A DNA stretch of 64,000 nt, taken from Betaproteobacteria bacterium. GTDB lineage: Bacteria; Pseudomonadota; Gammaproteobacteria; Burkholderiales; SG8-41. Location: contig CANKUB010000008.1 of the NCBI GenBank assembly GCA_947486575.1, positions 1,582 to 65,581 on the forward strand, given 5' to 3'. Below the pieces are notes generated by a model. It saw only the letters and a program-made list of their open reading frames with translations. It was not told where the DNA came from and did not search any database. Within the stretch, counting starts at the first letter, position 1; every line of letters begins with the position of its first letter. The position numbers and the translations under genes were made by a program. Of the stretch, positions 44,113-60,492 are shown piece by piece.

Positions 44113-44166
44113 ACGTAATTTTGTCCCGTGAATGACGTAATCCGAACTCACCTGACGGAGCATCGC

Positions 44167-44514: not shown

Positions 44515-44623
44515 CTACCGCTACGTTCAATTGTCAGGCGACTTTCCCGGAGGAAGGCCGCCGCCAAATCGCGCGTCGCGGGTGCGTGACCAGCGGTCAG
44601 CAGGGAGCCAAAGATACCCAATC

Positions 44624-44653
44624 TGCCCGGCACGGGCAAGGTACATATTTTTT
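44624..44653 (+). terminator. weak candidate terminator after the H1-like gene
   Basis: TGCCCG-gca-CGGGCA stem. The T-run (TTTTTT) starts about 9 nt downstream, so this is atypical. Confidence 0.3.
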
Positions 44654-44687
44654 ATCGTCAGTATGCATTTGTAGAATTTAAATTTTA

Positions 44688-44711
44688 TATAATAAAAACA
44701 TATACTTATAT
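44688..44711 (+). repeat. AT-rich boundary motif, copy 14
   Basis: TATAATAAAAACATATACTTATAT in the AT-rich intergenic region upstream of phnD. A weaker second copy, GTTAAAAACTTCTGTATG, follows at 44720-44737. Confidence 0.7.
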
Positions 44712-44965
44712 AATTTTAAGTTAAAAACTTCTGTATGATAGTGTGCACACACTAATAATTTGGCAAGCCAAACATAGACGCTGCGGCAATACGCTTGACC
44801 ACTTTATATGCGCTGAGTAGAGTAGCCTTCGTCCTCGCACCATCACCGGCATTCACGCGAATATGGATTTTAAAAATCGCAAGTAACTCGCATTAACATG
44901 CGTTTACCCAAATTTGCGTTCTGTGCACTACTCACATTTCGTACCAACGTTCAAGAGGTAATTCG

Positions 44966-46042
44966 ATGCAATTCCCAGTCACACGCTTTCTCCCGTCGCG
45001 GCTCATCCGGCCCGCGCAATTGATCGCGTACGCGGTTCTTACCGTGACGTTCGCGCTGCTAGCGCAGGGTGCTTATGCGCAAGCCGATTGCAAGAATCGT
45101 GGCGATCTCGACGCGCTGTATTGCGACGAGAACAAAGACCTAGTGGCTGATGCACCTGCAGACGCCAAGCGCTTCAAAAATCCGTCGACCCTGGTGTTTA
45201 CCTACACGCCCGTGGAAGATCCGGCCGTCTACGAAAATATCTTCAAGCCCTTTACCGATTACCTCGGCCAATGCACAGGCAAGCGCGTGGTGTTTTATCA
45301 GGTGCAATCCAACGCGGCTGAAATCGAAGCCATGCGTTCGGGGCGCCTGCATGTCGGTGGCTTTTCCACCGGCCCCACCAACTACGCGGTGAATATCGCC
45401 GGTGCGGTGCCGTTCGCGGTAAAAGGCGGCGAAAAGGAATTGCAGGGCTACAACCTCATCATGATCGTGAAGAAAAGCAGCCCCTATCAGAAAATGGCGG
45501 AACTCAAAGGTAAAAAAGTCGCGCACGTACAGCCTTCATCCAACTCCGGCAATCTGGCGCCGCGCGCGCTCTTTCCCGCGCTGGGCTTGACCCCCGATCA
45601 GGATTACAAAGTGCTCTACTCAGGCAAGCACGACAATTCCATCACCGGCGTCGCCACCGGCGATTACGATGCCGCGCCCGTGGCCTCCGATGTATTCAAG
45701 CGTATGGCCGCACGCGGGCAAATCAAGGAAGACGACTTCCGTATTATATGGCGCAGCGAAACCTTCCCCACATCGTCATTTGCCTACGCACATGATCTTG
45801 AGCCGAAGTTGCGTGACACGATGACGAAATGTTTTTACGACTATCGCTTTCCGGCAGAGATGAAAAAAGCGTTTGACGGCGCCGATCGTTTCTTCCCGAT
45901 TACCTATCAAAAAGATTGGGCCATCGTGCGCAAAGTCGCCGAAGGCAGCGGCGAAAAATTCAACAGCGCGGCGTTTGAAAACCTGAAAAAGAAAGAAGCC
46001 GAAGCGCTGGCCGCCAAAGCACAGCAGGCGCAGAAAAAATAA
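44966..46042 (+). CDS. phnD: phosphate/phosphite/phosphonate ABC transporter substrate-binding protein
   Basis: Signal peptide, then ...LVFTYTPVEDPAVYENIFKPFTDYLGQCTGKRVVFYQVQSNAAEIEAMRSGRLHVGGFSTG... is the PhnD-family pattern. It is followed by phnC and phnE genes. Confidence 0.85.
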   Translation: MQFPVTRFLPSRLIRPAQLIAYAVLTVTFALLAQGAYAQADCKNRGDLDALYCDENKDLVADAPADAKRFKNPSTLVFTYTPVEDPAVYENIFKPFTDYLGQCTGKRVVFYQVQSNAAEIEAMRSGRLHVGGFSTGPTNYAVNIAGAVPFAVKGGEKELQGYNLIMIVKKSSPYQKMAELKGKKVAHVQPSSNSGNLAPRALFPALGLTPDQDYKVLYSGKHDNSITGVATGDYDAAPVASDVFKRMAARGQIKEDDFRIIWRSETFPTSSFAYAHDLEPKLRDTMTKCFYDYRFPAEMKKAFDGADRFFPITYQKDWAIVRKVAEGSGEKFNSAAFENLKKKEAEALAAKAQQAQKK

Positions 46043-46065
46043 TTCAATAAAAACAATGTGTTATG
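46043..46065 (+). repeat. AT-rich boundary motif, copy 15
   Basis: TTCAATAAAAACAATGTGTTATG, starting 1 nt after the phnD stop, inside the phn operon. Confidence 0.85.
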
Positions 46066-46096
46066 AAATTGTTCGCCATGCGTAAAGCCTGAGCTG

Positions 46097-46882
46097 TTGT
46101 TGGTCGATTCTTCATCCGCTGCGCTTGCGATTCGCGGCCTGGTCAAAGCCTATGTGCGCGGCAAGCCCGTGCTCAACGGCATCACGCTCGATATTGCATC
46201 GAATGGCATAACCGCAATTATCGGGCCGTCGGGCACCGGCAAATCCACGCTGATACGTTGCATCAACCGACTGGTTGAGCCGACCAGCGGCGACATTGTT
46301 TTTGAGGGGCGCAATCTGGTTACGCTAAACCGTAGCGATCTGCGCGCCGCTCGCCGCCAAATCGGCATGGTGTTTCAGGAATACAACCTCGTAGAACGCC
46401 TGACGGTGATGGAAAACGTTCTGTCGGGAAGATTGGGTTACGTGTCGCCCCTCAAAGCGTGGCTGCGAAAATTCCCGTCGTCCGACGTCAACGACGCTTA
46501 TGCGCTGCTCGAAACCGTGGGACTCACCGCTCAAGCGCATGCGCGCGCCGATGCCTTGTCCGGCGGGCAGCGCCAGCGCGTCGGCATTGCCCGCGCGCTG
46601 ATGCAGCGTCCGAAATTACTGCTGGCGGACGAGCCAACTTCATCGCTTGACCCCAAAACGTCGGTCGAAATCATGACGCTGATGCGTGATCAATCCAGCG
46701 CTCGCGGCATTCCTGCCATCGTCAATATCCACAACGTTGAACTGGCCCGACGTTTCGCTACACGCATCGTGGGTTTGAGCGGCGGCGCAGTAGTATTTGA
46801 CGATTCGCCCGGCGCACTTAACGACGCGCATCTCAAGCAAATCTACGGTGGTGAAAGCTGGCTCGATGGCGGCGCTGGCTAA
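46097..46882 (+). CDS. phnC: phosphonate ABC transporter ATP-binding protein
   Basis: Walker [10 protein letters not shown], signature LSGGQRQRV, Walker [11 protein letters not shown] start (46097 or 46100). Confidence 0.9.
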
Positions 46883-47657
46883 TCGTTCATTGTTGATAGC
46901 GCCCGCGAACTGGCCTGCGCGCCTGGCGTGGATTGCGTTCGCGATTTACTTTGTCTATGCGCTGTCGCATCTTGAGGTTACGCCCGCACGGTTTGTGACC
47001 GGTCTCGATTACGGGCAGAAGTTTTTGGCCAAGCTTTTTCCGCCCGATTTTCATCGCTGGGAGTTGCTGCTCAAAGGCCTCAAGGAAAGCCTCGAAATCG
47101 CCGTACTGGCGTCTGTGCTGGGGCTGGTGATTTCGCTGCCGGTGAGCCTGCTTGCAGCGCGCAACCTGATGCCGTCGTGGATTACCTGGCCCGCACGATT
47201 GCTGATGGTGGTGTGTCGCTCGTTTCATCCGGTCATTATCGCCATCCTGTTTGTGAAGGCCGTGGGGTTTGGCGCGCTGGCCGGCATACTCGCGCTGACG
47301 GTGGCGTCACTCGGCTTTCTCGGCAAACTCTTTACCGAAGCCATAGAAGAAATTTCGTTGAAGCAGGTTGAAGCCGTGCGCGCCACCGGCGCCCCGTTCA
47401 TGAGTGTGATTGCGTTTGGCGTGGTGCCTCAGGTATTTTCGCGTTTCATCGGCTTTGCCTCGTATGAACTGGATTCCAATCTGCGCAATTCCACCATGGT
47501 GGGCATTGTTGGCGCGGGCGGTATCGGCGGCACTCTGTTTGCCGCATTTCAGCGCTTTGACTACGACTTTGTGTGCGCGATTATTCTGTCGATTATCGGC
47601 ATGATAATCGTCGGTGAAGTGCTGACTAACGCCGTCAAGAAAGTGTTTCGCGCATGA
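46866..47657 (+). CDS. phnE: phosphonate ABC transporter permease
   Basis: Polytopic, with PhnE-type EAA region (...[20 protein letters not shown]...). The ATG at 46866 overlaps the phnC 3' end. Confidence 0.85.
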
Positions 47658-48469
47658 GTAGCGAGGCCGTTGTTGGCGTCGTGGATCGGGAATGGCAGCG
47701 CTATTCCATTGGCGAGCGCATCGCGCGCTTTGCGGTTTACATCGCGATTGTTGCCGCCGTCGTACTGTCGATACGCAGTGTTGAAGTCATTCCCGATTTC
47801 ATTCTCGATGCGCCAGAGCAGGTCGTCGATCTGTTAAAGCGCATGTGGCCGCCGGATGTTGCGTCGTATCCACAGGAGATTCATGCCGCACTGCTGGATT
47901 CGCTGCATATCGCTACCGTAGGCACGGCCTTCGGCGTTTTGATGGCGTTACCGTTCGGATTTCTCGCTGCGCGCAATGTAACACCTTGGCCGTGGCTGAA
48001 TTGGGTGGCGCGGCTCGTGCTGATTGCCACGCGTTCGGTTAACACGCTGGTGTTCGCGCTGTTTTTTGTCGCCGTGTTCGGGCCCGGCGCATTGGCGGGC
48101 ACGCTGGCGATAGCGTTTCACTCCATCGGTTTCGTCGGACGGCTATTTTCCGAAGCACTCGAAAACACCAGCCCGGGCCCCATCGAGGCCCTGCGCGCTG
48201 CGGGTGCGCCGAGCGCCAGCGTCATCAGCTTCGGCTACTGGCCGCAGGTGGTGCCCGCGTTCTGGTCGCTGGTACTGTTCAGGTGGGATATCAACGTGCG
48301 CGAATCCATTGTGCTGGGACTGGTGGGCGCTGGCGGCGTGGGCATGGCCCTCGACAATGCGCTGAATTTATTTCAATGGACGCGCGTTTCAATGATCCTG
48401 CTGGCTATTCTGGGGGTGGTGATTGCTGCGGAGATCGCGGTGACATACATCCGCAAAAGGGTCATCTGA
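47654..48469 (+). CDS. phnE: phosphonate ABC transporter permease (second copy)
   Basis: Paralog of the preceding permease (...EALENTSPGPIEALRAAGAP...). ATGA overlap. Confidence 0.85.
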   Translation: MSSEAVVGVVDREWQRYSIGERIARFAVYIAIVAAVVLSIRSVEVIPDFILDAPEQVVDLLKRMWPPDVASYPQEIHAALLDSLHIATVGTAFGVLMALPFGFLAARNVTPWPWLNWVARLVLIATRSVNTLVFALFFVAVFGPGALAGTLAIAFHSIGFVGRLFSEALENTSPGPIEALRAAGAPSASVISFGYWPQVVPAFWSLVLFRWDINVRESIVLGLVGAGGVGMALDNALNLFQWTRVSMILLAILGVVIAAEIAVTYIRKRVI

Positions 48470-48510
48470 TTTATCCACAAAGCGCGTGACCCATCTGCCC
48501 GGAACTTTGC

Positions 48511-49158
48511 ATGGCACAAAACCACTATTCCGATATGCCTGATGTAGCCCTGAAAGACTGGCGTAAATCCGAGCGGGCGCGGCTGATCGCGGCTCGTGTG
48601 GCGCTGGATGCTTCGCACATGTCGCGTTTGCGTGTGGCGATGGATGCGCATCTCGAACGGGCATTTCCGATGCTGGCCACAGGCACTGTCGCCTTTTGCT
48701 GGCCCTATCGCAATGAGTATGATGCGCGCCATCTCATGCACCGGATGCGCGCTCGCGGTGCCCGCACGGCGCTGCCCGTGGTTATCGGCAGCAAACAACC
48801 GTTGATTTTTCGCTACTGGCAGCCCGGTGATGTTTTGGCCAAAGGCGTATACGACATTCCCTACCCCCCCAATGGCGAGGCCATTGTGCCCGATGTGGCG
48901 CTGGTGCCGATGAACGGCTTCGATACGGGTGGATACCGGCTGGGGTATGGCGGCGGATTTTTCGACCGCACGCTGGCCTCGTTAAGCGCTGGCGGCCTGA
49001 CACGTCCACTCGCTATCGGTGTTACTTACGAACTCGCGCGTATGGAAACCATACACCCGCAGCCGTACGACATACCAATGGATTATGTAGTGACGGAGCG
49101 CGGCGTGTATGAACGCCGCGCAAGCGGGTTGCGGTTGACTGAAACCGGTACTACCTGA
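48511..49158 (+). CDS. 5-formyltetrahydrofolate cyclo-ligase family protein
   Basis: ...WRKSERARLIAARVAL...VALVPMNGFDTGGYRLGYGGGFFDRTL is the 5-FTHF cyclo-ligase C-terminal signature. Confidence 0.8.
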   Translation: MAQNHYSDMPDVALKDWRKSERARLIAARVALDASHMSRLRVAMDAHLERAFPMLATGTVAFCWPYRNEYDARHLMHRMRARGARTALPVVIGSKQPLIFRYWQPGDVLAKGVYDIPYPPNGEAIVPDVALVPMNGFDTGGYRLGYGGGFFDRTLASLSAGGLTRPLAIGVTYELARMETIHPQPYDIPMDYVVTERGVYERRASGLRLTETGTT

Positions 49159-50452
49159 GCGGCGCTTTGCCTGAAGCAATATCCATGATCATGCGCGTGG
49201 CGAGATACAGTCGCGGCTCGATGGATGAAATCACAATGTATTCGGCGTTGGTGGTGTGCGCACCAAATCCCTGCAGGCCGAAGCCCTCGACCACCGGATT
49301 ATTGGTTTTGAGTCCCGCGAACGCGGCATCGGTGCCGCCGCCGCGCGGCTCGTCGTCCGCCTTGATCTTGTAACCCACTTCGGCGGCGACCTTCTGCCCG
49401 TAGTGCGCCAGTGCGAGCGAGGCGGGCTTGGCTTCCAACGGCGGGCGGCCCCGCTCGAAGTTCAGTTCCACCTGCGCCTGCGGCAAGAGCTTGTTCTTGA
49501 TGCGTTCCTTTAACTTGGCCTCGATGCCATCGAGGTCCTGCACGCGCAGTACGCGGATATTCATGGTCGCTTGCGCGCCGGGCGGAATCATATTGCGTAC
49601 GAGGCCGCCTTGCGCCAGCACCCAGTTCGCGCGCAAGCCAATTTTTGCATCGGAGAGATCACGCGATTGCAGTATCTGGTGCGCGAGCTCATCCACCGCG
49701 TTGATGCCTAAATGCGGCGCGCTGCCCGAGTGTGCCGCGCGTCCGCGCACGGTGATGGTGGCGTTAGCGCTACCGCTGGTGGCGACGGACAGTATCGCCT
49801 GCTGCGGTGTGCCGCCGCCTTCGAACGACAGCGTCGCATCATGCTCCGCGCCGAGACGAGCAAGCACGTGGCGCGAAGCGGGCGAACCCACTTCCTCGTC
49901 GGCCGTCACCAGCACGGTGAGCGTGCCGTAGTCGCGGAAATTCAGCACGTTCAACATCGTCATCGTGTGCAAGATCAGCGCCATGCCCTGGCGGTTATCG
50001 GCGATGCCCAGTCCGTAGGCGCGATCGCCGTCGATCTTGTACGGCTGGCCGGCGAGCATGCCCTTGCGATAGACCGTATCCATGTGCGCCAGCAGCAGAA
50101 TTTTTTTCGTGCCCGTGCCAGTAAACGTGGCGCGTAGCGTGCGGCCGATTTTCTCCGGCGAGCCGCTGTCGCGCGTGGCTTCCGCGTTGCCGTCGATCAT
50201 GTCGACCTTGGCACCGAGTTGGGTAAAGCGTCTGGTGAGCGCCGCGCCGATCTGTTCAAGCCCTTCGAGTTCGTAGCTGCCGGATTCGATTTGAACCAGT
50301 TCTTTTAGCGTGTCGAGCAGCAACGGCTTCTCTTTTTGCGCGAGCTTCTGCACGGCATCCATCGCCAGTGCGGGTGTGGCGAGGCCAGCGCCCAGCCACA
50401 AGACTGCCGCCAGAACTCTTACGTAACTTTTTGATTTAAAGATATTTTTCAT
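49151..50452 (-). CDS. M20-family glutamate carboxypeptidase (carboxypeptidase G2-like), secreted
   Basis: Signal peptide, then LLLAHMDTVY, GLGIADNRQG, ADEEVGSP, GGGTDA. Start set at ATG 50452 (the ORF-track TTG at 50461 is 3 codons upstream). Confidence 0.85.
   Translation of the reverse strand: MKNIFKSKSYVRVLAAVLWLGAGLATPALAMDAVQKLAQKEKPLLLDTLKELVQIESGSYELEGLEQIGAALTRRFTQLGAKVDMIDGNAEATRDSGSPEKIGRTLRATFTGTGTKKILLLAHMDTVYRKGMLAGQPYKIDGDRAYGLGIADNRQGMALILHTMTMLNVLNFRDYGTLTVLVTADEEVGSPASRHVLARLGAEHDATLSFEGGGTPQQAILSVATSGSANATITVRGRAAHSGSAPHLGINAVDELAHQILQSRDLSDAKIGLRANWVLAQGGLVRNMIPPGAQATMNIRVLRVQDLDGIEAKLKERIKNKLLPQAQVELNFERGRPPLEAKPASLALAHYGQKVAAEVGYKIKADDEPRGGGTDAAFAGLKTNNPVVEGFGLQGFGAHTTNAEYIVISSIEPRLYLATRMIMDIASGKAPLR
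50422..50441 (-). repeat. AT-rich boundary motif, copy 16 (inside the signal-peptide codons)
   Basis: Reverse complement CTTTAAATCAAAAAGTTACG (AATCAA-AAAG-TTA), encoding ...FKSKSY... at codons 6-11 of the first M20 peptidase. Confidence 0.55.
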
Positions 50453-50479
50453 TTGTCGCAACCTTTGCAGTGTTGGCGT

Positions 50480-51769
50480 TTACTTAAGGGGTGCCTTGCC
50501 GCTCGAAATATCCATGATCATGCGCGTGGCCAGATACAAACGTGGCTCAATTGAATTCATGAATATGAATTCGGCGTTGGTGGTGTGCGAGCCGAAGCCG
50601 TGCAGGCCAAAGCCTTCGATGACCGGCGCAGTCGTTTTTAGAGAAGCATTGGCCGCGTCAGTAAAGCCGCCCGAAGCATCTTCCAGCACGGCAAGCTTAC
50701 GCCCCAGTTCGCCATAGATGGTTTGCGCGTGCGCAGCGAGTACGCGTGACGTGGGTTTGGGCTCCAGCGGCGGAAAGCGGCGTTCGAAGACGAGTTCGAC
50801 TGATGATTCCGGCAGCAGCTTGTTCTTGACGCGCTCTTTAAGTTTTTGTTCGATACCGTCGTAATCGACGATACGCGCCACGCGCACATCGGCTTGTGCC
50901 TGTGCGCCGGGCGGAATCATGTTGATAACGATGCCCGCGCGTGACAGCGTCCAGTTTACTTTCACGCCAGTTGCCGGATCGGACAAATTGCGCATTTGAA
51001 TGATCTGATGCGACAGTTCCTCCAGCGCATTGATGCCTTGTTCGGGTGCGGCACCCGCATGCGAGGCGCGTCCGCGCACATTGAGCATGGCAATGGCGTG
51101 TCCGCTGGTGGCAAGACGCACGCGATCTTCCTTTTCATTGCCGCCACCCTCAAAGGACATCACGGCATCGTGGGCGGCGCCCAGCCGCATGTGGTGATTG
51201 CGTGCACCGGGCGAACCTATTTCTTCGTCGGCATTGATGAACACGGTGATGGTGCCGTAGTCGCGAAATTTCATGGCGTTAAGCATGGTGATCGTGTGCA
51301 GTATCATCGCGACACCGTGGCGATTGTCCGCAATGCCCAGACCATAGGCGCGATCGCCCTCGATTTTGAACGGTTGCTGTTTGGCCATGCCGCGCGGGTA
51401 CACGGTATCCATGTGCGCCATCAGCATGATCTTCTTCGTTCCCGTGCCGGTAAAAGTAGCCTTCACCATCTTGCCGATCTTTTCAGGCGTGTCAGACAGG
51501 CGCACGGTGTCCGATTCCACCGGCTCGATCAGTTCGACCTTGCCGCCGAGCGACTGTAGGCGTTTGGCGATATCGTTGGCGATCTTGTCGAGTTCTTCGA
51601 GTTCGCGGCTGCCGGATTCAAACGCCACCAGCGCCTTCAGCGTGTCCATCAATGCCGGTTTTTCTTTTTGCGCCAGCGACCACACCGGCTCGAGTGGTGC
51701 GCCGCGAGCAGCGCTTGCCGCAAACCAAAGGAAGGCGACACAACCTATTGTTTTAATTAATTTTTTCAT
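50480..51769 (-). CDS. M20-family glutamate carboxypeptidase (carboxypeptidase G2-like), secreted; tandem paralog
   Basis: Alignable end to end with the neighbouring M20 gene (MLMAHMDTVY, GLGIADNRHG, ADEEIGSP). Start set at ATG 51769 (MKKLIKTIG...). Confidence 0.85.
   Translation of the reverse strand: MKKLIKTIGCVAFLWFAASAARGAPLEPVWSLAQKEKPALMDTLKALVAFESGSRELEELDKIANDIAKRLQSLGGKVELIEPVESDTVRLSDTPEKIGKMVKATFTGTGTKKIMLMAHMDTVYPRGMAKQQPFKIEGDRAYGLGIADNRHGVAMILHTITMLNAMKFRDYGTITVFINADEEIGSPGARNHHMRLGAAHDAVMSFEGGGNEKEDRVRLATSGHAIAMLNVRGRASHAGAAPEQGINALEELSHQIIQMRNLSDPATGVKVNWTLSRAGIVINMIPPGAQAQADVRVARIVDYDGIEQKLKERVKNKLLPESSVELVFERRFPPLEPKPTSRVLAAHAQTIYGELGRKLAVLEDASGGFTDAANASLKTTAPVIEGFGLHGFGSHTTNAEFIFMNSIEPRLYLATRMIMDISSGKAPLK
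51739..51760 (-). repeat. AT-rich boundary motif, copy 17 (inside the signal-peptide codons)
   Basis: Reverse complement TTAATTAAAACAATAGGTTGTG, encoding ...LIKTIGC... at codons 4-10 of the second M20 peptidase. Confidence 0.75.
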
Positions 51770-51780
51770 AATATTCTCGA

Positions 51781-52812
51781 TTAACCCTTTTGCCACAACG
51801 AGGAAAACGCGCTGATCGCGTAATCTACCTCAGTATTGCCCACATGCCGCTGCGTGACAAACCGCAACGTCGTAGCCGACGCTGGACTGACACGCACGCC
51901 TTTGCGCTCCAACTCAGCCGACCATTGCGCGGCATTGCGTTTGCTCGCCACCAGATCGACGCGCACAAGATTGGTCTCGACATCGTTGGGATCAACCAGG
52001 CTCGCGTCGATGCGATGTAGCCCCTCCGCCAGACGCTTTGCAGCGGCATGATCATCCTTCAATCGATCTACCATGGTGTTAAGCGCGAGTATGCCCGCAG
52101 CGGCGAGCGGCCCGGCCTGACGCATATTGCCGCCGACCATGCGGCGGAAAGTGCGTGCGCGTTCGATAAACTTTTCAGTGCCGCACAGCACTGAGCCCAC
52201 CGGCGCACTCAGGCCTTTCGATACGCAAAAGCCTATCGAGTCGGTGTATTGAGCGATTTGCTTGGCATCCACGCCCAGCGCGACGACAGCATTAAACAAG
52301 CGCGCGCCATCGGTGTGCACTGGCACACCATGTTCGTGCGCGAGGGTGTTCACCGCTTTCATATGCGCCAGCGGCAGCACCGCGCCGCCGGCCTGATTGT
52401 GCGAGGTTTCCATGCACACCAGCGCGGTGCCCAGATTGTTGCGCGTCATCGGACGGATTTTTTCGCGCAGCGCATCGACATCCATTGCGCCGCGTTTGCC
52501 CGGCACGGCGCGGTGAAACATGCTGGCAAGACCGGCGATACCGCCGATTTCGGAAACGAGTATGTGCGCGCTGGCTTCGAGCAATACTTCACCGCCGCGC
52601 TGCGCATGCGCGAGCACGGCGACAAGATTGGTCATGGTGCCGCTGGGCATGAACGCGCCCGCTGCCTTGCCAGTGCGCTCGGCGGCGAGTGCTTCGAGCT
52701 GCATCACGGTTTCGTCGCCATCGCGCGAATCGTCGCCGTAGCTCGCTTCGCGCATCGATTCGAGCATGGCTTCAGTGGGGCGGGTAATGGTGTCGCTGCG
52801 TAAATCGATCAT
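51781..52812 (-). CDS. ltaE: low-specificity L-threonine aldolase
   Basis: MIDLRSDTITRPTEAMLESMREASYGDDSRDGDETV...MPSGTMTNL...CVSKGLSAPVGS (PLP Lys) are canonical beta-eliminating lyase/threonine aldolase motifs. Confidence 0.9.
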   Translation of the reverse strand: MIDLRSDTITRPTEAMLESMREASYGDDSRDGDETVMQLEALAAERTGKAAGAFMPSGTMTNLVAVLAHAQRGGEVLLEASAHILVSEIGGIAGLASMFHRAVPGKRGAMDVDALREKIRPMTRNNLGTALVCMETSHNQAGGAVLPLAHMKAVNTLAHEHGVPVHTDGARLFNAVVALGVDAKQIAQYTDSIGFCVSKGLSAPVGSVLCGTEKFIERARTFRRMVGGNMRQAGPLAAAGILALNTMVDRLKDDHAAAKRLAEGLHRIDASLVDPNDVETNLVRVDLVASKRNAAQWSAELERKGVRVSPASATTLRFVTQRHVGNTEVDYAISAFSSLWQKG

Positions 52813-52859
52813 AAGTCACTCCAAAATAGCTGCTGCGGAAGAACTGCGTGGCGCGTGGA

Positions 52860-52892
52860 TTATAGCGCTCGACAGCCCGCATCGGCTATAAT
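52860..52892 (+). promoter_or_regulatory. candidate promoter/operator of the phd-vapC operon
   Basis: 7 bp inverted repeat TTATAGC (52860-52866) / GCTATAA (52885-52891). The right arm overlaps a perfect TATAAT (52887-52892) 33 nt upstream of the antitoxin ATG. No good -35 was found. Confidence 0.35.
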
Positions 52893-52924
52893 ATGACCAA
52901 TATTCTGACCAACTGGAGCACGCC

Positions 52925-53158
52925 ATGCACGCGATTAACCTCGCTGAAGCCAAGGCCCACTTAAGCGAGCTTGTCAGCAAGGCCGAAGGCGGCGAAGAAA
53001 CCATCATCATGCGGCGCGGCGCGGCGGTTGCCAGACTGGTGCCCATGGCCATGCCTAAAAAATCCTACCAGTCTCGCGCGGCGTTTCGCGCTACCCAGCA
53101 AAAAGCCCAAACGCCGAGTGTGGATCTGATTCGCCGGTTGCGTGACGAGCGTTATTGA
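52925..53158 (+). CDS. type II antitoxin, Phd/YefM family
   Basis: MHAINLAEAKAHLSELVSKAEGGEETIIMRRGAAVARLVP is a typical Phd/prevent-host-death N-terminus. Translationally coupled to a PIN gene. Confidence 0.8.
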   Translation: MHAINLAEAKAHLSELVSKAEGGEETIIMRRGAAVARLVPMAMPKKSYQSRAAFRATQQKAQTPSVDLIRRLRDERY

Positions 53159-53583
53159 TGATCTATCTGGACACCAGCGTTATTGTCCCGCTGGTGATCA
53201 ACGAGGACAGCAGCACGTCAGTCGAGGCGCTGGTCTCCAAAGTAAAGCCCGGCGAACTGACAACCAGCCTGTGGACACGAATTGAAATCGAGAGCCTCGT
53301 GGCGCGTAAGCTGCGCATGGGCGAGTTGACGGCGGCGCAGGCCGAAGCCGTGCGGCGCGAGGTACACACGATAATGCAGGAATCTTTCAAAATGCTTGTG
53401 CCCACCGCAACCGATTTTGAAACCGCCGAGGCATACCTCGGCACGCCCAAGACAGGCCTGCGGGCCGGCGATGCGTTTCATCTGGCGATCGCGGCGAACC
53501 ACGGCGCAAAGAAAATCTGGTCGCTCGATCAAGGTTTCGTCAAGGCTGGCAAATTACTCAAACTGCCGGTGGGTCTTGGCTAG
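53158..53583 (+). CDS. vapC: type II toxin, PIN-domain ribonuclease VapC
   Basis: MIYLDTSVIVPL... (first acidic residue), ...GDAFHLAIAANHGA...SLD... PIN signature. TGATG overlap with the antitoxin. Confidence 0.8.
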   Translation: MIYLDTSVIVPLVINEDSSTSVEALVSKVKPGELTTSLWTRIEIESLVARKLRMGELTAAQAEAVRREVHTIMQESFKMLVPTATDFETAEAYLGTPKTGLRAGDAFHLAIAANHGAKKIWSLDQGFVKAGKLLKLPVGLG

Positions 53584-53957
53584 CGGCTGGAAACACTGAA
53601 AGCCACGCCCAGCCGCACCGCCAAAGCGTCGAGTTTCTTGTCTATCGTCCACAGCAGCGTATCCGGCGTGAGCAGAACAGAGGCGAGTAACGCCATATCC
53701 ACCGCGCCGCAGCCCGATTCATGGAATTGCGCGCGCTCGATCAAGGAAAGCGTCTCGTCGGTGGTAGCGACAACGGCCTGCCGCAGCAACCTGAGATCGC
53801 CGAGCGTGCGCTCGCGCGGCGCCGGTGGCGATCCGCACGCGAGTTCGAGCACGATCAACGGATGGCACAATAATTGATCCATCGCGACCAACGATTGAAG
53901 CACTGGGTTGGCGCTGCGAAAATGTGCAACCCAGACAGAGGTGTCCGCAAGCACCAA
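53580..53957 (-). CDS. vapC: type II toxin, PIN-domain ribonuclease VapC (second, convergent)
   Basis: MVLADTSVWVAHFR...HPLIVLELACG...GAVDMALLASV...TIDKKL PIN motifs. Confidence 0.8.
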   Translation of the reverse strand: MVLADTSVWVAHFRSANPVLQSLVAMDQLLCHPLIVLELACGSPPAPRERTLGDLRLLRQAVVATTDETLSLIERAQFHESGCGAVDMALLASVLLTPDTLLWTIDKKLDALAVRLGVAFSVSSR

Positions 53958-53959
53958 GG

Positions 53960-54166
53960 TTATCGGCTAAGCACTTCTGCCCGCCGACGGGGCGTGTCCT
54001 TCATCAAGGGGGCCTTGCCGCCCAGCGCAGCAAGCCGTTTGCCTGCTTGCACCCGCACGAATACTTTCATCGCTTCACGAAACAGATCGGCCTTGTCCGT
54101 TCCGGGATCGGCAACGTCCAGCGCTCGCTGATAAAGCGCATCATCAATGGTTACGGTTGTTCTCAT
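53960..54166 (-). CDS. vapB: type II antitoxin VapB (ribbon-helix-helix-like)
   Basis: MRTTVTIDDALYQRALDVADPGTDKADLFREAMKVFVRVQ is typical of VapB/DUF2191-like antitoxins. It lies 2 nt upstream of the PIN gene. Confidence 0.7.
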   Translation of the reverse strand: MRTTVTIDDALYQRALDVADPGTDKADLFREAMKVFVRVQAGKRLAALGGKAPLMKDTPRRRAEVLSR

Positions 54167-54188
54167 GTTTAGCTTCTCTGTCATCAAA

Positions 54189-54210
54189 TATGATGCATTA
54201 TAGCATCATA
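54189..54210. promoter_or_regulatory. candidate VapB operator (perfect 8 bp inverted repeat)
   Basis: TATGATGC-attata-GCATCATA, about 25 nt upstream of the vapB ATG on the minus strand. Confidence 0.45.
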
Positions 54211-54464
54211 AAAGGTGATGAAAAAAGGCAATCACCCCGCATCGGCAGCACGTTGTTGACGAGTAGCACTGCAAGTGCTGAACGCTGCTGGTGCAGTGAT
54301 TCGTCTGCTCGGGTTATTCTAGTAAACTTTTAAATGATTGATTTAATTGAATTTTTATTTTTGATGCTACGGCGAAATAAAATGGACTTGGGGGTGCGCA
54401 AGTGCCAGAAAATACAGCCGGATAGGCGTCAATGTCGCCAATCGATGTATAGTCGCAATTGTTC

Positions 54465-54716
54465 CTACGGTTGATCGGCTACTACTCGCACTTCGCTGTC
54501 ATGGCGCGCATGCGCAAGCACGGCGACTAAGTTGGTCGTGGTACCGCTCGGCATAAACGCGCCAGCTTCCTTGCCGGTGCGTTCGGCGGCAAGCGCTTCA
54601 AGAGGCATCACCGTTTCATCGCCATTGCGTGAATCATCGCCGTAGCTCGCTACGCGCATGGCGTCGAGCATCGCTTCGGTGGGGCGGCTAATGGTGTCGC
54701 GGCGTAAATCAATAAT
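54465..54716 (-). pseudogene. 5' fragment of a threonine aldolase gene (ltaE'), start codon lost
   Basis: Reverse-frame translation IIDLRRDTISRPTEAMLDAMRVASYGDDSRNGDETVMPLEALAAERTGKEAGAFMPSGTTTNLVAVLAHA... matches 62 of the first 76 codons of the intact ltaE (hand alignment). ATG is replaced by ATT. Similarity ends near 54489 and a stop follows at 54465. Confidence 0.8.
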
Positions 54717-54724
54717 ATTAAAAT

Positions 54725-54747
54725 CTCAATAAAAACATATAGTTAAG
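54725..54747 (+). repeat. AT-rich boundary motif, copy 18
   Basis: CTCAATAAAAACATATAGTTAAG, between the ltaE' fragment and the HAD gene. The HAD stop codon (TAA on the minus strand) is the complement of the motif's GTTAAG end. Confidence 0.8.
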
Positions 54748-55543
54748 TGATGTTCGCGGCGAGCAACCAGGCAGCGGCTTCGGCGAACCCCACGCCGCAT
54801 CGCTGATGGGTAACGTACGCAGGTAAGTGTTCCACACGCGCGCCAAAGTCTGCAACATTCGCCACACCCACCGCATGCGGGAAATAGCTGAACATCGGCG
54901 CATCGTTGGGTGAGTCGCCGATGAATACAAACTGCTCGCGTACGGCATCAAGCTCAATATTGAACGACTCGCGCAGCAAGGTTTTGCTCATGCCAAGCTT
55001 GTCGTAATGGCCAAACCAGCCGTTGACGTGTATGGAACTGACTTTCGCGGTGAGGCCGCACTGCTTCATGTGTGCGACGATTTTATCGATGGCCGCTTGC
55101 GATAACGGCGTCACGTCTTCGCAAAAATCAATCGCCAGATCGGTTTCGCGGTACTGCTGGTCAGCCGCAATCGCCGCACCGGGCACGGCGTTGATGATCT
55201 CGCGGCCGATTTGCGCGAGTCGCGCGCGATGTTCGGCGCGCGTGGCGGCATCATCTATAAAATGCCGATGCATCGTGCGTGCTGCCGTGTCGTATCGAAA
55301 ATAAAACGCTCCGTTTTCACCCACCACACCATCCACCGGCCACATCCGCGCGATGTGGTCGCACCATCCAGCGGGTCTGCCAGTTACCGGTATCACCAGC
55401 AACCCGGCTTGCTGAAGGCGTTGCATCGCGCTGTAGGCTTCGGCGGTGATGCGGCCTTCGGTGCTCAACGTGTCATCGATATCGCACAGCACGCCGCGTA
55501 TGGCGCGTCGCGCCTCAAGCGAAAACTCTGCCAGCGGCCTCAT
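54743..55543 (-). CDS. HAD-superfamily (IIB-like) hydrolase
   Basis: GVLCDIDDTLS (motif I DxDxT), VIPVTGRP (motif II), GDSPNDAPMF (motif IV). Confidence 0.8.
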   Translation of the reverse strand: MRPLAEFSLEARRAIRGVLCDIDDTLSTEGRITAEAYSAMQRLQQAGLLVIPVTGRPAGWCDHIARMWPVDGVVGENGAFYFRYDTAARTMHRHFIDDAATRAEHRARLAQIGREIINAVPGAAIAADQQYRETDLAIDFCEDVTPLSQAAIDKIVAHMKQCGLTAKVSSIHVNGWFGHYDKLGMSKTLLRESFNIELDAVREQFVFIGDSPNDAPMFSYFPHAVGVANVADFGARVEHLPAYVTHQRCGVGFAEAAAWLLAANIT

Positions 55544-55555
55544 CGTGGCGACGCG

Positions 55556-56245
55556 CTATTCCATACCTTCAATTTCAACCATGGCCCACACACGCTTGAA
55601 CGGGCCGCGTCTGGCGAGAAGTTCCTGCCGTGCGGATTCTGCGACATCCGGGTGTATCCATTGCGGCTGGCCCAGCGTGCAAGAGAGATACGCGCGGTGC
55701 GCATTCTCTTCAAGAAAAAATGCGCCGGTGACAGATTCTTCAATATCACCGCCGGTGACCACGCCGCCGTGCGCATATAGCAGCGCCGCGCGATGCTGGC
55801 CCAGTGCCTTGGCCAGTGCCTGCCCGCGTTGCGGATTACTGACCAGGCGCGGGTCAGCGTAAATCGGCAATCCATCGGCGAACAACGTGCCCATTAAATG
55901 TATCGGGCGCAATTGGTGTGCCGCGCTGGTGGTGAATGCGGTGGCGTGCATGCCGTGATAGTGAATGACGCTGTGCACATCGGGCCGCGCGCGATAGATT
56001 TCGTGATGTATCGGCGCTTCACCGGGCGTGACGCCTTTGCCCGCGAGCACCGCGCCGCTCATGTCATACACCAGCATGTCGTCGGGCGTGATGATCGGCC
56101 CCAGCGAATGGCGCGTGAGCATGTAGTTATCCGTGCCCGGTATGCGCACGCTGAGATGGCCGAAGCCTTCGATGAATCCGCGGCGATACAGAAAGCGCCA
56201 GGCTTTCAGGCATTTTTCCATCAAGGTTGCTTCGGGTGACGGCAT
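55556..56245 (-). CDS. class II aldolase/adducin-family protein
   Basis: ...GHLSVRIPG...PIHHEIYRARPDVHSVIHYHGMHA...YAHGGVVTGG are typical class II aldolase metal-binding His motifs. Confidence 0.85.
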   Translation of the reverse strand: MPSPEATLMEKCLKAWRFLYRRGFIEGFGHLSVRIPGTDNYMLTRHSLGPIITPDDMLVYDMSGAVLAGKGVTPGEAPIHHEIYRARPDVHSVIHYHGMHATAFTTSAAHQLRPIHLMGTLFADGLPIYADPRLVSNPQRGQALAKALGQHRAALLYAHGGVVTGGDIEESVTGAFFLEENAHRAYLSCTLGQPQWIHPDVAESARQELLARRGPFKRVWAMVEIEGME

Positions 56246-56253
56246 GTGTTTTC

Positions 56254-56856
56254 TCAGGCAGCGGGTGGAGTTACCGATGGCGCAGGGTTAAAGCCGAATC
56301 GCTGCGGCACGTCAGCAGATCGTATCGGCTCAAATTTTACATTGCTGTCGCGGAATTTCAGCCACAGCGGAATCGGACGTTGATGTTCGATGAACTCCAG
56401 CAACGTATCGAAAGCACTTTCCTCGATAACGTTGCCGTTCACATCAATCATCGCCGCCAGCAACAGCGGATCAAGGTCTTGATCGTGCGCGATACCGATA
56501 CCGCGATCGGTGTGCAGCAATATCGCGCCTTGCTCATCGATCCACGCGCCGTGCAACGTGTTGACGTTGTCGCCGATGTGGGTAGCCAGCGCCAGCGGCG
56601 CGTGCAACGCGCTGGTTACGCGATATACAAACGGCGTGCAATCGAGATCGACAAACACGCGCTGCGGGCCATTCTGGAAATACCAGTTGCCCGCATCGTC
56701 GTGCAGATAGTTGCGGCTGATGAAAGCTTTCAAGGCTTCGTTGCCGATGGTCTCGCGCTTGAGCAACCAGTTACCGCGACGGTCCAGCGCAAGCCAGCCG
56801 CAGACTGACGGAACATTCGGCCATTTGGCCATCGCGCGCAGGACGGATTCATCCAT
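56254..56856 (-). CDS. conserved hypothetical protein (family not recognised)
   Basis: 200 aa ORF with good coding appearance (MAKWPNVPSVCGWLALDRRGNWLLK...), upstream of and co-oriented with the aldolase/HAD genes. Confidence 0.55.
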   Translation of the reverse strand: MDESVLRAMAKWPNVPSVCGWLALDRRGNWLLKRETIGNEALKAFISRNYLHDDAGNWYFQNGPQRVFVDLDCTPFVYRVTSALHAPLALATHIGDNVNTLHGAWIDEQGAILLHTDRGIGIAHDQDLDPLLLAAMIDVNGNVIEESAFDTLLEFIEHQRPIPLWLKFRDSNVKFEPIRSADVPQRFGFNPAPSVTPPAA

Positions 56857-56898
56857 GTTTTTTTATCCAGTGAATGATACTTGCCGCGCGCGGCTGCA

Positions 56899-57759
56899 TC
56901 ACTTCATGAACGCTTTGATCCAATCCTTGTATTCGCCGTTGTGTGTCATCTTGTCCATCTCTTCATTCGACGCGATTCTGGATTTGAGATCAGCTGCAGC
57001 GCCGCCGTTGTAAAGATGCGAATACACCTCGCGCAGCACTTTCACCGCTGCCGCCAGGGGCTGATGCCCTTGCAGCATGACGCGTGCGCCGACCGCTTCA
57101 AATTCTTCGCGCTTGATCGACGCGGGTGCGGAGCCGACGATGATCGGCAACTTTGACGCCTCTTGGATCGCTTTGACTTGCGCGACCGTTTCCACGCCCA
57201 CCACGAAGATGCAATCCACGCCGCACGCTGCATAGGCCTTCGCGCGCGCGCACGTGCCTTCGACGCCTTCAACTTTCAATGCAGCAGTGCGGCCTGCGAT
57301 GACGGTGGTTGGGTCTTTTTTCGCGGCGACAGCGGCTTTGAGTTTGCCGACCATTTCCGGCAACGAAATCAGCATGTCTTTTTCCTGGCCAAAGCTCAAC
57401 GGCAGCAAGGTGTCTTCAATGCTCATCGCCGAGACGCCCGCGTGTTCGCACTCGATCACCGTGCGCATCACGTTCAGCGCGTTGCCATAGCCATGATCGG
57501 CATCCACCAGCAGTGAAATGTCCGACGCGCGCATGATGCGGCGTATCTGATCCGCAAATTCAGTGAGGGTAAGCACAATCAAGTCGGGCGCGGCGAGCGT
57601 GCTGTTCGACGACACCGATCCCGCAAGAATGCCCAGCGTGTAGCCCACGTCCTGCGCGATGCGCGCTGACAGGCCGTCATACACGCTGGCGGGTGACAGA
57701 CATTTAGTGCCGTTCAAGATGGCGCGCATGCGCTGCCGCTGTTCAGTGGGGGTCAACAT
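56899..57759 (-). CDS. isocitrate lyase/PEP mutase-family enzyme (oxaloacetate decarboxylase / methylisocitrate lyase-like)
   Basis: ...SVYDGLSARIAQDVGY...LLVDADHGYGNALNV...GVSAMSIEDT... are PEP-mutase superfamily motifs. Confidence 0.85.
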   Translation of the reverse strand: MLTPTEQRQRMRAILNGTKCLSPASVYDGLSARIAQDVGYTLGILAGSVSSNSTLAAPDLIVLTLTEFADQIRRIMRASDISLLVDADHGYGNALNVMRTVIECEHAGVSAMSIEDTLLPLSFGQEKDMLISLPEMVGKLKAAVAAKKDPTTVIAGRTAALKVEGVEGTCARAKAYAACGVDCIFVVGVETVAQVKAIQEASKLPIIVGSAPASIKREEFEAVGARVMLQGHQPLAAAVKVLREVYSHLYNGGAAADLKSRIASNEEMDKMTHNGEYKDWIKAFMK

Positions 57760-57776
57760 TTTATTAATAACTCCGC

Positions 57777-57810
57777 GGTTAAATAATCTAATAAAAACAA
57801 TAGGTTACAT
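57777..57810 (+). repeat. AT-rich boundary motif, copy 19 (extended form)
   Basis: GGTTAAATAATCTAATAAAAACAATAGGTTACAT, between the PEP-mutase-family start (57759) and the TauD stop (57842). It shares the GGTTAAATAAT 5' extension with copy 5. Confidence 0.85.
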
Positions 57811-57841
57811 TGATTTCTTGGGCGAGGCGACCAGCACTGCG

Positions 57842-58714
57842 CTATTGCACGGTCGGCCCTTCGCCTGCAACGGTGGTGCGGTGCAGAACGCGCGCATGCT
57901 CGGTGATGGCATAAGGCCGCGCGCGATGCAATAAGGCACGATTGTCGTACATCACCAGATCGCCCACATGCCAGGTATGCATGTGGGTAAATGTTTCCTG
58001 CGTGGCGTGCTCCAGCAGTTCGAGCAGCAGTGCGCGGCCTTCGGCTTCGGGCATTTCGCGGATATGCGAGGCATGCGATCCGACGTAGAGCGCTTTGCGC
58101 CCATTTTTCGGATTGGCGCGGATGATGGCCTGCGGCACCGGTGGAAAGCGTTTGTCTTCTTCTTCGTTAGTGAGTTTGATGCCGGTGTTGCGGCGCGAGT
58201 AGGCATAGTGATGAATGGCTGCCTTGTCTTCGAGTGCGCGCTTGCGGTCCTCGGGTAGCGCGTCGTAGGCCGCGCGCAGACTGGTGAATTGTGTTTGCCC
58301 GCATTCGTCACTATTGGGTGGTAACACGCGGGCGTGCAGCAGCGAGGCTTTGGCCGGCACTTTTTTGAACGAACTGTCGGAGTGCCAGTTGCGCTGGCCA
58401 ATTCGAAAAATCAGGCGCGGATCGTCGGCTGCCATCAGTTTACCGTTTGGATCAAGATTCGAAATCTCCGATATCTGTTTCACCTGAAAGTGATTGGCGA
58501 TATGGCCTTGCGTGGTTTCCAGCGGGCCGAAGCGGCTGCTGAAAGCGATCTGGCTTTCATCACTGAGATTTTGATTGGGGAATACCAGCAAGGAATAGGT
58601 TTCGAATGCGTTCTCAATTTCAGCGAAGGTGGCGTCGTCGAGCGGACGCGTCAGGTCAACGTTAGTGATTTCCGCGCCGAATACGGGGGTGAGTTTGCGT
58701 AAGGTAATGGACAT
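57842..58714 (-). CDS. TauD/TfdA-family Fe(II)/2-oxoglutarate dioxygenase
   Basis: MSITLRKLTPVFGAEITNVDL..., WHSDSSF (HxD facial triad), ...HMHTWHVGDLVMYDNRALLHRA. Start at ATG 58714, preceded by AAGGAA. Confidence 0.85.
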   Translation of the reverse strand: MSITLRKLTPVFGAEITNVDLTRPLDDATFAEIENAFETYSLLVFPNQNLSDESQIAFSSRFGPLETTQGHIANHFQVKQISEISNLDPNGKLMAADDPRLIFRIGQRNWHSDSSFKKVPAKASLLHARVLPPNSDECGQTQFTSLRAAYDALPEDRKRALEDKAAIHHYAYSRRNTGIKLTNEEEDKRFPPVPQAIIRANPKNGRKALYVGSHASHIREMPEAEGRALLLELLEHATQETFTHMHTWHVGDLVMYDNRALLHRARPYAITEHARVLHRTTVAGEGPTVQ

Positions 58715-58868
58715 GGCGTTTCCTTGCGGGTAAGTTTTTTGTGTTGTTATTGCGCGCGCCACTGCACAGGAGCGCTGATTGATGGCTGTTGATCCGGAAT
58801 CCATTTATGATAGCACCGAGCCGCTGCCATGCATGCAGCGAGTCCATCATAAATTTGGGGGAGACCAC

Positions 58869-59908: not shown

Positions 59909-60172
59909 ATGAAAGAATCCATGCAGGTCAATATTCGTCCCATAGGCAATTCCCGCGGCATTGTCATTCCCAAGCCGCTGCTCGCGCAGGTGGGCTTGAG
60001 TAGCGGTATGGCCGAAATTGCCATAGAAGGCGGTGCGCTGGTGCTTCGCAAGCCGCGTAAACCGGCGCGTAGTGGCTGGGCGGATGCCGCAATTAAAATT
60101 GCCGAAAGCGACGATGATGCGCTGGTACTGGGTGAATTCGGCAACGCGGCGGATGCGGAGCTGACTTGGTAA
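59909..60172 (+). CDS. mazE: type II antitoxin, AbrB/MazE/SpoVT family
   Basis: MKESMQVNIRPIGNSRGIVIPKPLLAQVGL... is a SpoVT-AbrB swapped-hairpin motif. It overlaps the toxin gene. Confidence 0.75.
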   Translation: MKESMQVNIRPIGNSRGIVIPKPLLAQVGLSSGMAEIAIEGGALVLRKPRKPARSGWADAAIKIAESDDDALVLGEFGNAADAELTW

Positions 60173-60492
60173 AGTTGGTGCGCGGGCAAATCTGGCTGGT
60201 CAACCTTGATCCCACTATTGGCAGCGAAATCAAAAAATCAAGACCTTGTGTCGTGGTGTCTCCACCCGAGATGCATGATCATTTGCGTACGCTGATTGTT
60301 GCGCCGATGACAACCAAGAGCCGCCCAGCGCCGTTTCGTGTGGCGGTAACGCATGCAGGAAAGAAGGGATTGATACTTTTGGATCAGCTGCGTGCCATTG
60401 ATAAGGCGCGGCTTGTGCGCAAGTCGGGCACGGTGCCCGCGCAAACGCTGGCGCTTGTTTTGGCCACGTTGCAAGAAGTGTTTGTTGAGTAA
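60166..60492 (+). CDS. mazF: type II toxin, PemK/MazF-family endoribonuclease
   Basis: ...VRGQIWLVNLDPTIGSEIKKSRPCVVVSP...IVAPMTT...LLDQLRAIDKARL is the PemK/MazF signature. Start TTG 60166 or GTG 60178. Confidence 0.8.
   Translation: MVKLVRGQIWLVNLDPTIGSEIKKSRPCVVVSPPEMHDHLRTLIVAPMTTKSRPAPFRVAVTHAGKKGLILLDQLRAIDKARLVRKSGTVPAQTLALVLATLQEVFVE

Follow-up and report, generated by a model that had tools for sequence, protein, structure and literature searches.

The window analysed here is a stretch of 64,000 nucleotides (nt) from a Betaproteobacteria bacterium (GenBank assembly GCA_947486575.1, contig CANKUB010000008.1, positions 1,582 to 65,581). The element in question is an insert carrying two toxin-antitoxin (TA) modules, which lies between an intact threonine aldolase gene, ltaE, and a truncated second copy of the 5' end of that gene. 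A preliminary interpretation made from the letters of the window (hereafter the sequence-only reading) had drawn attention to this arrangement. The locus was compared with loci of relatives (L-numbers), which were collected by a HAD-protein scan of one genome per species and from metagenome contigs with graded ltaE homologues. The features of the locus, from the HAD gene to ltaE, are as follows.

54743-55543, minus strand: gene for a HAD-family hydrolase (Pfam Hydrolase_3), the last gene of the DUF2946-aldolase-HAD block and the upstream (left) flank of the insertion hotspot.
54717-54742, minus strand: complete 26-nt HAD-ltaE spacer of an AT-rich 'type 2' (TGTTTTTATTGAGA...), aligned with those of L092, L179, L188 and L001 and of the same length as at empty sites.
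54489-54716, minus strand: stub B, a pseudogene consisting of codons 1-76 of a foreign ltaE allele with an ATT start, as recognised from the repeat, its L092/P0026-type affinity and its ratio of non-synonymous to synonymous substitution rates (dN/dS).
54465-54488, minus strand: read-through beyond the homology, from the stub to a stop codon, with the illegitimate junction at about 54488/54489.
54264-54488, no strand: X-distal, 225 nt of AT-rich non-coding DNA found only in the window lineage and L087-89.
54167-54263, minus strand: vapBC2 leader and predicted promoter (TTTTCA-16-TATAAT at 54224-54197); homology to unrelated vapBC2 loci starts at 54263.
53960-54166, minus strand: vapB2 antitoxin gene (Pfam VapB_antitoxin, 1.2e-5), with the conserved start MRTTVTIDD and the ATG at 54166.
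53580-53957, minus strand: vapC2 PIN toxin gene (Pfam PIN, 1.7e-5).
53158-53583, plus strand: vapC1 PIN toxin gene (Pfam PIN, 7.9e-15).
52925-53158, plus strand: phd, gene for the Phd/YefM-type antitoxin of vapC1 (Pfam PhdYeFM_antitox, 1.1e-10).
52813-52924, no strand: phd-ltaE intergenic region with two TATAAT boxes and a 'type 1' spacer remnant.
52585-52812, minus strand: copy A, the first 76 codons of the intact ltaE, the resident allele and congruent with the species tree.
51781-52812, minus strand: intact threonine-aldolase-like (GntG-family) ltaE (Pfam Beta_elim_lyase, E = 5e-94), followed by M20b and M20a.

A repeat search of the window identified a direct repeat of 228 nt (52586-52813 and 54490-54717) with 83% identity and a start-to-start distance of 1,904 nt; the only other long repeat in the 64 kb is formed by the M20a and M20b paralogues. 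On pairwise comparison, stub B (54489-54716) matches the first 76 codons of the intact ltaE (52585-52812) in the same orientation at 188 of 228 nt (82.5%), as the sequence-only reading had proposed, with a gap of 1,676 nt between the copies and BLAST cross-hits of E about 1e-60. That reading had further described 62 of the 76 codons as identical, a figure that is correct for the amino acids, whereas only 42 of the 76 codons are the same at the nucleotide level. The 40 differences fall 5/8/27 at codon positions 1/2/3. The ATT in place of a start codon, the frame open to a stop at 54465-54467 and the abrupt end of similarity to every ltaE one base past codon 76, at about 54488, were also read as described, in the sequence and in the alignments. 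Likewise, the phd-vapC pair and the convergent vapBC pair proposed to lie between the copies agree with the Pfam assignments, which also place HAD, class II aldolase (AldII) and DUF2946 genes upstream of stub B. The same structure was present in at least ten independent assemblies and in a lineage about 4% diverged. As it recurs in independent ENA, NCBI, JGI and Logan assemblies, the duplicated structure is real and not an assembly artefact.

Both pairs are predicted to be type II TA modules (Phd-PIN and VapB-PIN), each with the gene for a PIN toxin directly downstream of a small antitoxin gene. vapC1 and vapC2 are convergent and their stop codons overlap in the palindrome CTAG at 53580-53583, leaving neither intergenic DNA nor a terminator between them. 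The vapBC2 unit was found to be similar, from the leader through the stop codon (54263-53578), to 80 unrelated metagenome loci at 73-85% nt identity. The 80 metagenome relatives of VapC2 are 69-88% identical at the amino acid level, and the pairing of vapB2 with vapC2 is kept in 78 of the 80 loci. None of them includes phd or vapC1, and several adjoin the 3' end of guaA. Homologues of vapC1 fall from 99% straight to 77% identity, with no intermediate context usable. As judged by the vapBC2 loci devoid of phd-vapC1 and by this gap, the two are independent modules fused tail to tail, and the islet of the window lineage combines a phd-PIN unit with a vapBC2 unit of wide mobility. In lineages about 4% apart neither pair is disrupted, and the differences are 11/3/19 by codon position.

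A conserved leader of about 76 nt (CGTCAACAACGTGCCGCCGATGCGGGATGA...TATAATGCATCATATTTGATGA) accompanies vapBC2 in otherwise unrelated contexts (L099, L101, L103, L113, L129 and L134), and could be an operator or an insertion-related end. When the flanks of unrelated vapBC2 modules were aligned (MAFFT) in search of terminal repeats, the result was uninformative and only the 76-nt leader emerged. A plasmid origin of the cassette was rejected, as plasmid vapBC matches are only 65-70% identical.

About 300 nt of the DNA between the copies is non-coding and AT-rich (GC 0.42 versus about 0.6 elsewhere), and neither Rfam families nor intrinsic terminators were found in the non-coding DNA of the insert. 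The sequence-only reading had correctly noted this stretch but had also placed a degenerate boundary motif in it, and the best 14-mer, CA[GC]CCCGCATCGGC at 52873 and 54233, occurs at chance level (at least two matches in 11 of 100 shuffles). A candidate match to the ltaE start in inverted orientation, within the non-coding DNA, was similarly at chance level (p about 0.17). X-distal is 88% identical to the corresponding DNA of L088 and had no match among the 189 loci searched other than those of the window lineage and L087-89.

The one-genome-per-species scan found ltaE immediately after HAD at 23 loci. In L001 (UBA5216), the closest relative in that genome collection, the gene order is TauD-PEPmutase-DUF2946-aldolase-HAD-ltaE-M20, and the site is empty. 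The empty site expected by the sequence-only reading, a single ltaE right after HAD, was also found in about 20 more distant Burkholderiales metagenome-assembled genomes (MAGs) and in several close relatives. The ancestral state is evidently a single ltaE directly after HAD, with the window lineage carrying an insertion. Close relatives hold at least five other contents at this junction, and the states observed, with the amino acid identity of ltaE to the window where determined, are listed here.

L087-89 (ltaE 97%): same stub and two TA pairs, colinear with the window at about 96% nt identity.
L092/93, L179-181 and the P0032 contig: empty site (HAD, 26 nt, ltaE).
L086/90/91 (ltaE 91-92%): 5.9-kb island and a different PIN TA pair, the HAD side being read in L086 only.
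L178 (ltaE 93%): PIN TA pair, on a contig that has TctC, not HAD, upstream of the pair.
L094: RES-toxin pair between HAD and ltaE.
L095: COXG-like gene and a thiamine pyrophosphate (TPP) enzyme gene between HAD and ltaE.
L188 (ltaE-M20b 99.5% identical to the window at the nt level): another HAD allele (90.8%), an ltaE remnant of about 50 nt and 440 nt of non-coding DNA, with no TA genes.
L084 (HAD 100% identical to the window): different sequence from 3 nt past the HAD stop codon.

In this clade of uncultured Burkholderiales from fresh water, the 26-nt gap between HAD and ltaE is evidently a multi-allelic recombination hotspot, even within one population; samples with the common label BUSI22-1 yielded assemblies of lineages with an islet as well as of lineages with an empty site. 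Neither this hotspot nor the independence of the TA modules had been recognised in the sequence-only reading. Within 10 kb on either side of the insert, the called genes that have Pfam matches include no integrase or transposase, as that reading had claimed, nor do the variant islets examined, and no tRNA gene is present in the 40-64 kb part of the window.

The junction of L188 (GCA_965091755.1 contig 474, about 816-1332) includes an AT-rich spacer, a heavily decayed ltaE 5' remnant of about 50 nt and about 440 nt of non-coding DNA that is common to L097 and whose end is also common to L086 and L178. This ltaE remnant is a second, older stub at the same junction. L084 (4805-4953) belongs to the MAG bin of L188, and the last 107 nt of its HAD gene are 100% identical to those of the window. 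Its sequence diverges 3 nt after the HAD stop codon (TAACTA, then GTGCTTGATTG...) and continues to the contig end through 146 nt unmatched among the fetched loci, which may be another islet allele or the end of a mobile element. Comparison of this junction with viral contigs gave no match.

To establish which of the two copies belongs to the window lineage, neighbour-joining (NJ) trees with bootstrap support were built for DUF2946, the aldolase, HAD, the rest of ltaE and M20b, and separately for the 228-nt segment. The window (with L088 where included) was placed beside L086 with support of 100% for DUF2946, 98% for the aldolase, 98% for HAD, 74% for the rest of ltaE and 82% for M20b. Over the 228 nt, copy A differs from L086 at 19 positions and from L178 at 14, while stub B has 36-44 differences from A, L086, L095 and L001 and 25-28 from L092. 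Stub B grouped with L092 to the exclusion of A and L086 in 397 of 500 bootstraps and fell within the (A, L086) clade in 11 of 500. A sign test was applied to the sites at which L086 and L092 differ, counted as L092 matches to L086 matches. The ratio is 20-22 : 6-7 for stub B (p = 0.004-0.02) and 9:17 for copy A, and the neighbouring genes gave 22:80 (DUF2946), 35:98 (AldII), 61:83 (HAD), 40:74 (rest of ltaE) and 68:172 (M20b). Stub B further includes the amino acid signature DA..V..ARH (D18 A19 V22 ... R71 H72) of the P0025, P0026, P0027 and P0032 alleles, and those with recovered context (P0026 = L092/L093, and the P0032 contig) sit at empty sites. Beyond this allele signature, a comparison of stub B with 120 ltaE homologues at the amino acid level did not discriminate, the sequences being too conserved.

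As judged by the grouping of B with L092 and of A and both flanks with L086, the stub is an alien piece, evidently of an L092/P0026-type empty-site allele, and the working ltaE (copy A) is the resident one. The sequence-only reading had assigned the roles in the opposite way, with the stub as the original resident 5' end and the intact copy arriving with the TA genes. This is not supported by the phylogeny, which puts A and five flanking genes nearest L086 and B nearest L092. Copy A differs by 1 nt from L188, whose cassette is another one, hence cassettes are swapped upstream of a shared resident ltaE. Stub B is of the B type from nucleotide 6 on along the 228 nt and copy A is of the A type throughout, and a crossover inside the repeat was rejected because no reciprocal mosaic of the two states is present. 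No L092-like or B-type block was found past codon 76 in the intact ltaE, which is L086-like over its whole length with no internal breakpoint. A foreign patch comprising the stub and the 3' half of HAD was also considered and rejected, as HAD is sister to L086 (98%) and fast-evolving, and its 3' end is nearer L086 than L092. P0032-type DNA (L096) was rejected as a nearer relative of B (32 versus 25 differences).

The history of the stub was examined using dN/dS values calculated by the Nei-Gojobori method on the reconstructed ancestral stub. The ratio is 0.10 (dS 0.64) for ancestral B against A and 0.05 (dS 0.43) against L092, and pairs of functional ltaE genes gave 0.01-0.08. The stubs of the window and L088, however, gave 1.09, with differences of 4/3/3 by codon position. 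These values, 0.05-0.10 against functional alleles and 1.09 against the L088 copy, indicate that the stub was once functional and was recently inactivated. It evidently formed part of a functional gene of a different lineage until not long before the window/L088 split of about 4%, and has drifted neutrally since. The start codon of the stub is ATT in the window (54714-54716) and ATA in L087-89 (L088 6097-6099), two substitutions of the same G of ATG. Such a double hit is unlikely by pure drift and may hint at selection against translation of the stub.

The spacers differ as well. Stub B retains a complete AT-rich spacer like that of L092, L179 and L188. The approximately 18 nt upstream of copy A (52813-52830, TATTTTGGAGTGACTT) are a 'type 1' spacer remnant with the ltaE ribosome-binding site, and resemble the 3' part of the ancestral spacer in L001, L094 and L095. 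Among close strains, HAD is the more variable side of the insertion (90.8-93.5% identity versus 96-99.5% for ltaE-M20b), and its divergence increases toward its 3' end. Between the window and L088, divergence is 4.4% in the stub, 3-6% at TA third positions and 11% in X-distal. In the flanks, third positions are 13.5% diverged in HAD and 10.4% in AldII. Neutral divergence is thus lower within the insert than in the flanks, a patchwork which suggests that the cassette or the flanks have been exchanged among strains since their split.

As a class, the facts fit homology-facilitated illegitimate recombination (HFIR), one of the two explanations that the sequence-only reading had preferred to classical site-specific integration, given the insertion in the spacer at a hotspot, a homologous segment that gives way abruptly at codon 76 to a non-homologous joint, the homologous segments from different lineages and the lack of site-specific machinery. 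A and B have 228 nt and about 18 nt of spacer in common, relatives have empty sites, and the two homologous segments come from different genomes (A with L086, B with L092; dN/dS 0.10 between them). The non-homologous junction of an HFIR product typically has 3-10 nt of microhomology. The features of a site-specific island are missing, namely an integrase or recombinase, short near-identical att repeats and, in the 40-64 kb part, a tRNA. The locus does not resemble an integron cassette either, as there is no integrase, the TA modules are convergent and, with their stop codons overlapping, no attC can lie between them.

Within this class, a one-sided import is tentatively favoured, at somewhat less than even probability, because the stub together with its spacer resembles an empty-site allele at its left end, the resident copy is A, and variation among close strains is greater on the HAD side. 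Empty-site DNA from a diverged relative (HAD-spacer-ltaE) would have entered a chromosome that already carried the TA islet, pairing on the HAD/spacer side. Resolution in ltaE, which would have deleted the islet, would not have taken place; instead, the other end of the incoming DNA, at ltaE codon 76, would have been joined illegitimately to islet DNA at 54488. The product would be an incomplete 'curing', in which whatever lay to the left of X was lost and both TA modules were kept. The stub would then have lost its start codon and drifted, and ltaE and the two M20 genes would probably now be transcribed from the divergent phd promoter region.

Several observations weigh against this reconstruction. 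The proposed anchor is poor: over its final 200 nt HAD has no more than 66-77% identity to L092, and high conservation is confined to a 16-nt block of the spacer. Nearby conservation is highest at the 5' end of ltaE (83-89%), which would serve better as an anchor; this favours the polarity of the sequence-only reading for the founding event. The islet presumed to have existed before the event, with X and both TA modules but no stub, was not found in any of the relatives. The ancestry tree of the stub is based on 228 nt, and the nearest sampled relative of B is still 11% away, the true donor being unsampled. Furthermore, the closest strains L188, L178 and L086 differ from the window directly upstream of ltaE, and the entire cassette may have been assembled in a different lineage, with later introgression, which would blur the distinction between 'resident' and 'donor'.

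The polarity proposed by the sequence-only reading is considered rather unlikely. A B-type chromosome would have taken up X, the TA modules and an A-type ltaE 5' end, with ltaE as the anchor and the joint at codon 76 of the recipient gene. Consistent with this, the stub lies in exact ancestral synteny (HAD, the complete 26-nt spacer, codon 1), the ltaE 5' end is the best local anchor (83-92% identity across lineages), and the pattern recurs in L188, where an older ltaE stub also follows the spacer. The spacer type of the approximately 18 nt upstream of A is unseen in the closest strains, hence the TA-to-A junction would have come from elsewhere. However, B is discordant with both flanks and A is concordant, and no B-type or L092-type block extends beyond codon 76. 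To fit the phylogeny, the event must have occurred in a different, B-type lineage, from which the finished cassette later passed into the present lineage by flanking recombination, or else the resident 5' end must earlier have been converted to the B type. This reading calls for one or two additional events, and still requires a crossover at the tail of HAD.

A Campbell-type event is improbable. In this case, a circularised fragment carrying the 3' part of the spacer, the B stub, X and both TA modules would have undergone a single homeologous crossover in the 5' region of the resident ltaE, duplicating it. The topology matches exactly, as homologous segments flank the cargo, the first truncated and the second continuous with the gene, and the stub and TA genes would be delivered in one step. 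The homology extends over about 245 nt, however, and the crossover would have to lie within its first 25 nt or so; a reciprocal mosaic is absent, and no replicon, integrase or excision function is present. Descent from a larger, site-specifically integrated island that has since lost its integrase and att sites is highly improbable. A 5.9-kb island does occupy the same junction in L086, and the right-hand junctions of three lineages lie at the same T-run of the spacer. Yet no variant examined includes an integrase, transposase or tRNA, and the flanking repeat, a 228-nt coding segment whose copies have diverged by 17%, does not resemble an att site. Shared junctions are also to be expected, given that only about 12 nt separate the HAD stop codon from the ltaE ribosome-binding site. 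A tandem duplication that arose in situ from the ltaE 5' end and then decayed, or a two-strain assembly chimera, would account for the direct orientation and common reading register, but can be dismissed in view of the mostly synonymous A/B divergence (dN/dS 0.10), the lineage-specific affinities to L092 and L001 and the recurrence of the structure in independent assemblies and the 4% diverged lineage.

If the one-sided import took place, the stub could be the scar of a failed attempt to 'cure' the TA islet, with the TA modules protecting themselves and their insertion site, although this extension is unlikely. Cells losing the TA genes would have been killed or disadvantaged, and a rare illegitimate resolution that kept both pairs would have survived. 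The locus would then be a natural footprint of TA self-protection against recombinational removal, and the TA-dominated variants of the hotspot would be residues of repeated rounds of conflict.

When chromosomes are cured of mobile elements through transformation (Croucher et al. 2016, as presented in the commentary PMC4795794), recombination across the insertion site similarly uses DNA from a relative without the element. It is accepted that deletions can arise by HFIR in the course of transformation, and the commentary explicitly foresees partial deletions (PMC4795794). The present case differs in that the curing would have stopped short of completion and the TA genes may have been retained through addiction. 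As in HFIR (de Vries & Wackernagel 2002; Prudhomme et al. 2002; Meier & Wackernagel 2003, as cited in PMC5361080 and PMC4795794), one junction is homologous and the other abrupt and non-homologous, no recombinase genes are present, and foreign and resident gene segments lie side by side. Unlike experimental HFIR, the locus in the window is a natural footprint, with the parental sequences unsampled. HFIR has also been invoked for orphan gene remnants elsewhere (PMC5361080). In the effector-immunity arrays of the Vibrio cholerae type VI secretion system (T6SS) and in Rhs and contact-dependent inhibition (CDI) loci, serial displacement leaves truncated or orphan allele pieces by an intact copy (PMC5361080), as seen here. 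In those arrays, however, the conserved 5' part is the anchor and the 3' orphans lie downstream, whereas the window has a 5' stub upstream, its cargo consists of TA modules, and ltaE encodes a housekeeping-type enzyme rather than a polymorphic toxin.

No direct precedent joining HFIR with TA modules was found in the literature searched. Integration hotspots between core genes were reportedly described by Oliveira, Touchon and Rocha in 2017. The HAD-ltaE junction is like such hotspots in having many alternative accessory contents between the same two genes and raised diversity in the flanking genes, and unlike them in that islets of 0.5-6 kb, mostly TA pairs, are found in a 26-nt spacer within an operon. 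As in other type II VapBC and Phd-PIN modules, the antitoxin gene abuts that of the PIN toxin, the acidic PIN residues are conserved and the promoter region is palindromic. The arrangement of two unrelated modules tail to tail with overlapping stop codons (CTAG), known here from sequence, is unlike the usual one.

The locus adds a natural case to processes already described, namely HFIR-like scars, orphan remnants of the kind seen in T6SS and Rhs arrays, integration hotspots and mobile VapBC modules, and as such is fairly ordinary. What is new is mostly the resolution, as three parental lineages are separable, pseudogenisation is datable and a sister strain has a second, older stub. Pieces from at least three lineages are preserved in one allele, namely the resident gene, a stub of foreign origin that was inactivated recently, and two TA modules independent of each other. 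Movement of chromosomal TA modules without a recombinase is poorly documented, and this locus is a well-resolved natural example of it. It supports homology-assisted illegitimate recombination, over site-specific integration, in the building and trimming of islets in free-living freshwater bacteria. It also indicates that synteny is a poor guide to which of two duplicated copies is the 'original'.

The practical effect of the insertion is local. ltaE and the two M20 peptidase genes are cut off from the upstream operon, their ancestral one, as the sequence-only reading had stated, and are probably dependent on the TA promoter region. The region between phd and ltaE includes perfect TATAAT boxes at 52859-52864 (minus strand) and 52887-52892 (plus strand), arranged as an inverted repeat. 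The former, overlooked in the sequence-only reading, is the likely replacement promoter for ltaE and would have been brought by the insert.

The M20 copies (49151-51796) are about 60% identical at the protein level, and one to three M20 paralogues follow ltaE among relatives (L092, L095 and L097). A conserved cluster at about 44000-58800 of the window includes genes for a TauD dioxygenase, a PEP-mutase-family protein, DUF2946, the class II aldolase, HAD, the GntG-like aldolase and the M20 peptidases. It is widespread in uncultured Burkholderiales, adjoins an ATP-binding cassette (ABC) transporter with a phosphonate-binding-type protein, and is possibly involved in the catabolism of phosphonate or amino acid derivatives. 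At 59909-60492, a MazE/AbrB-PemK TA pair lies between a TctC-family gene and a GDSL lipase gene. The corresponding region is without TA genes in L095 and has a Phd-ParE pair nearby in L092, which suggests that another small TA hotspot exists at a distance of about 5 kb.

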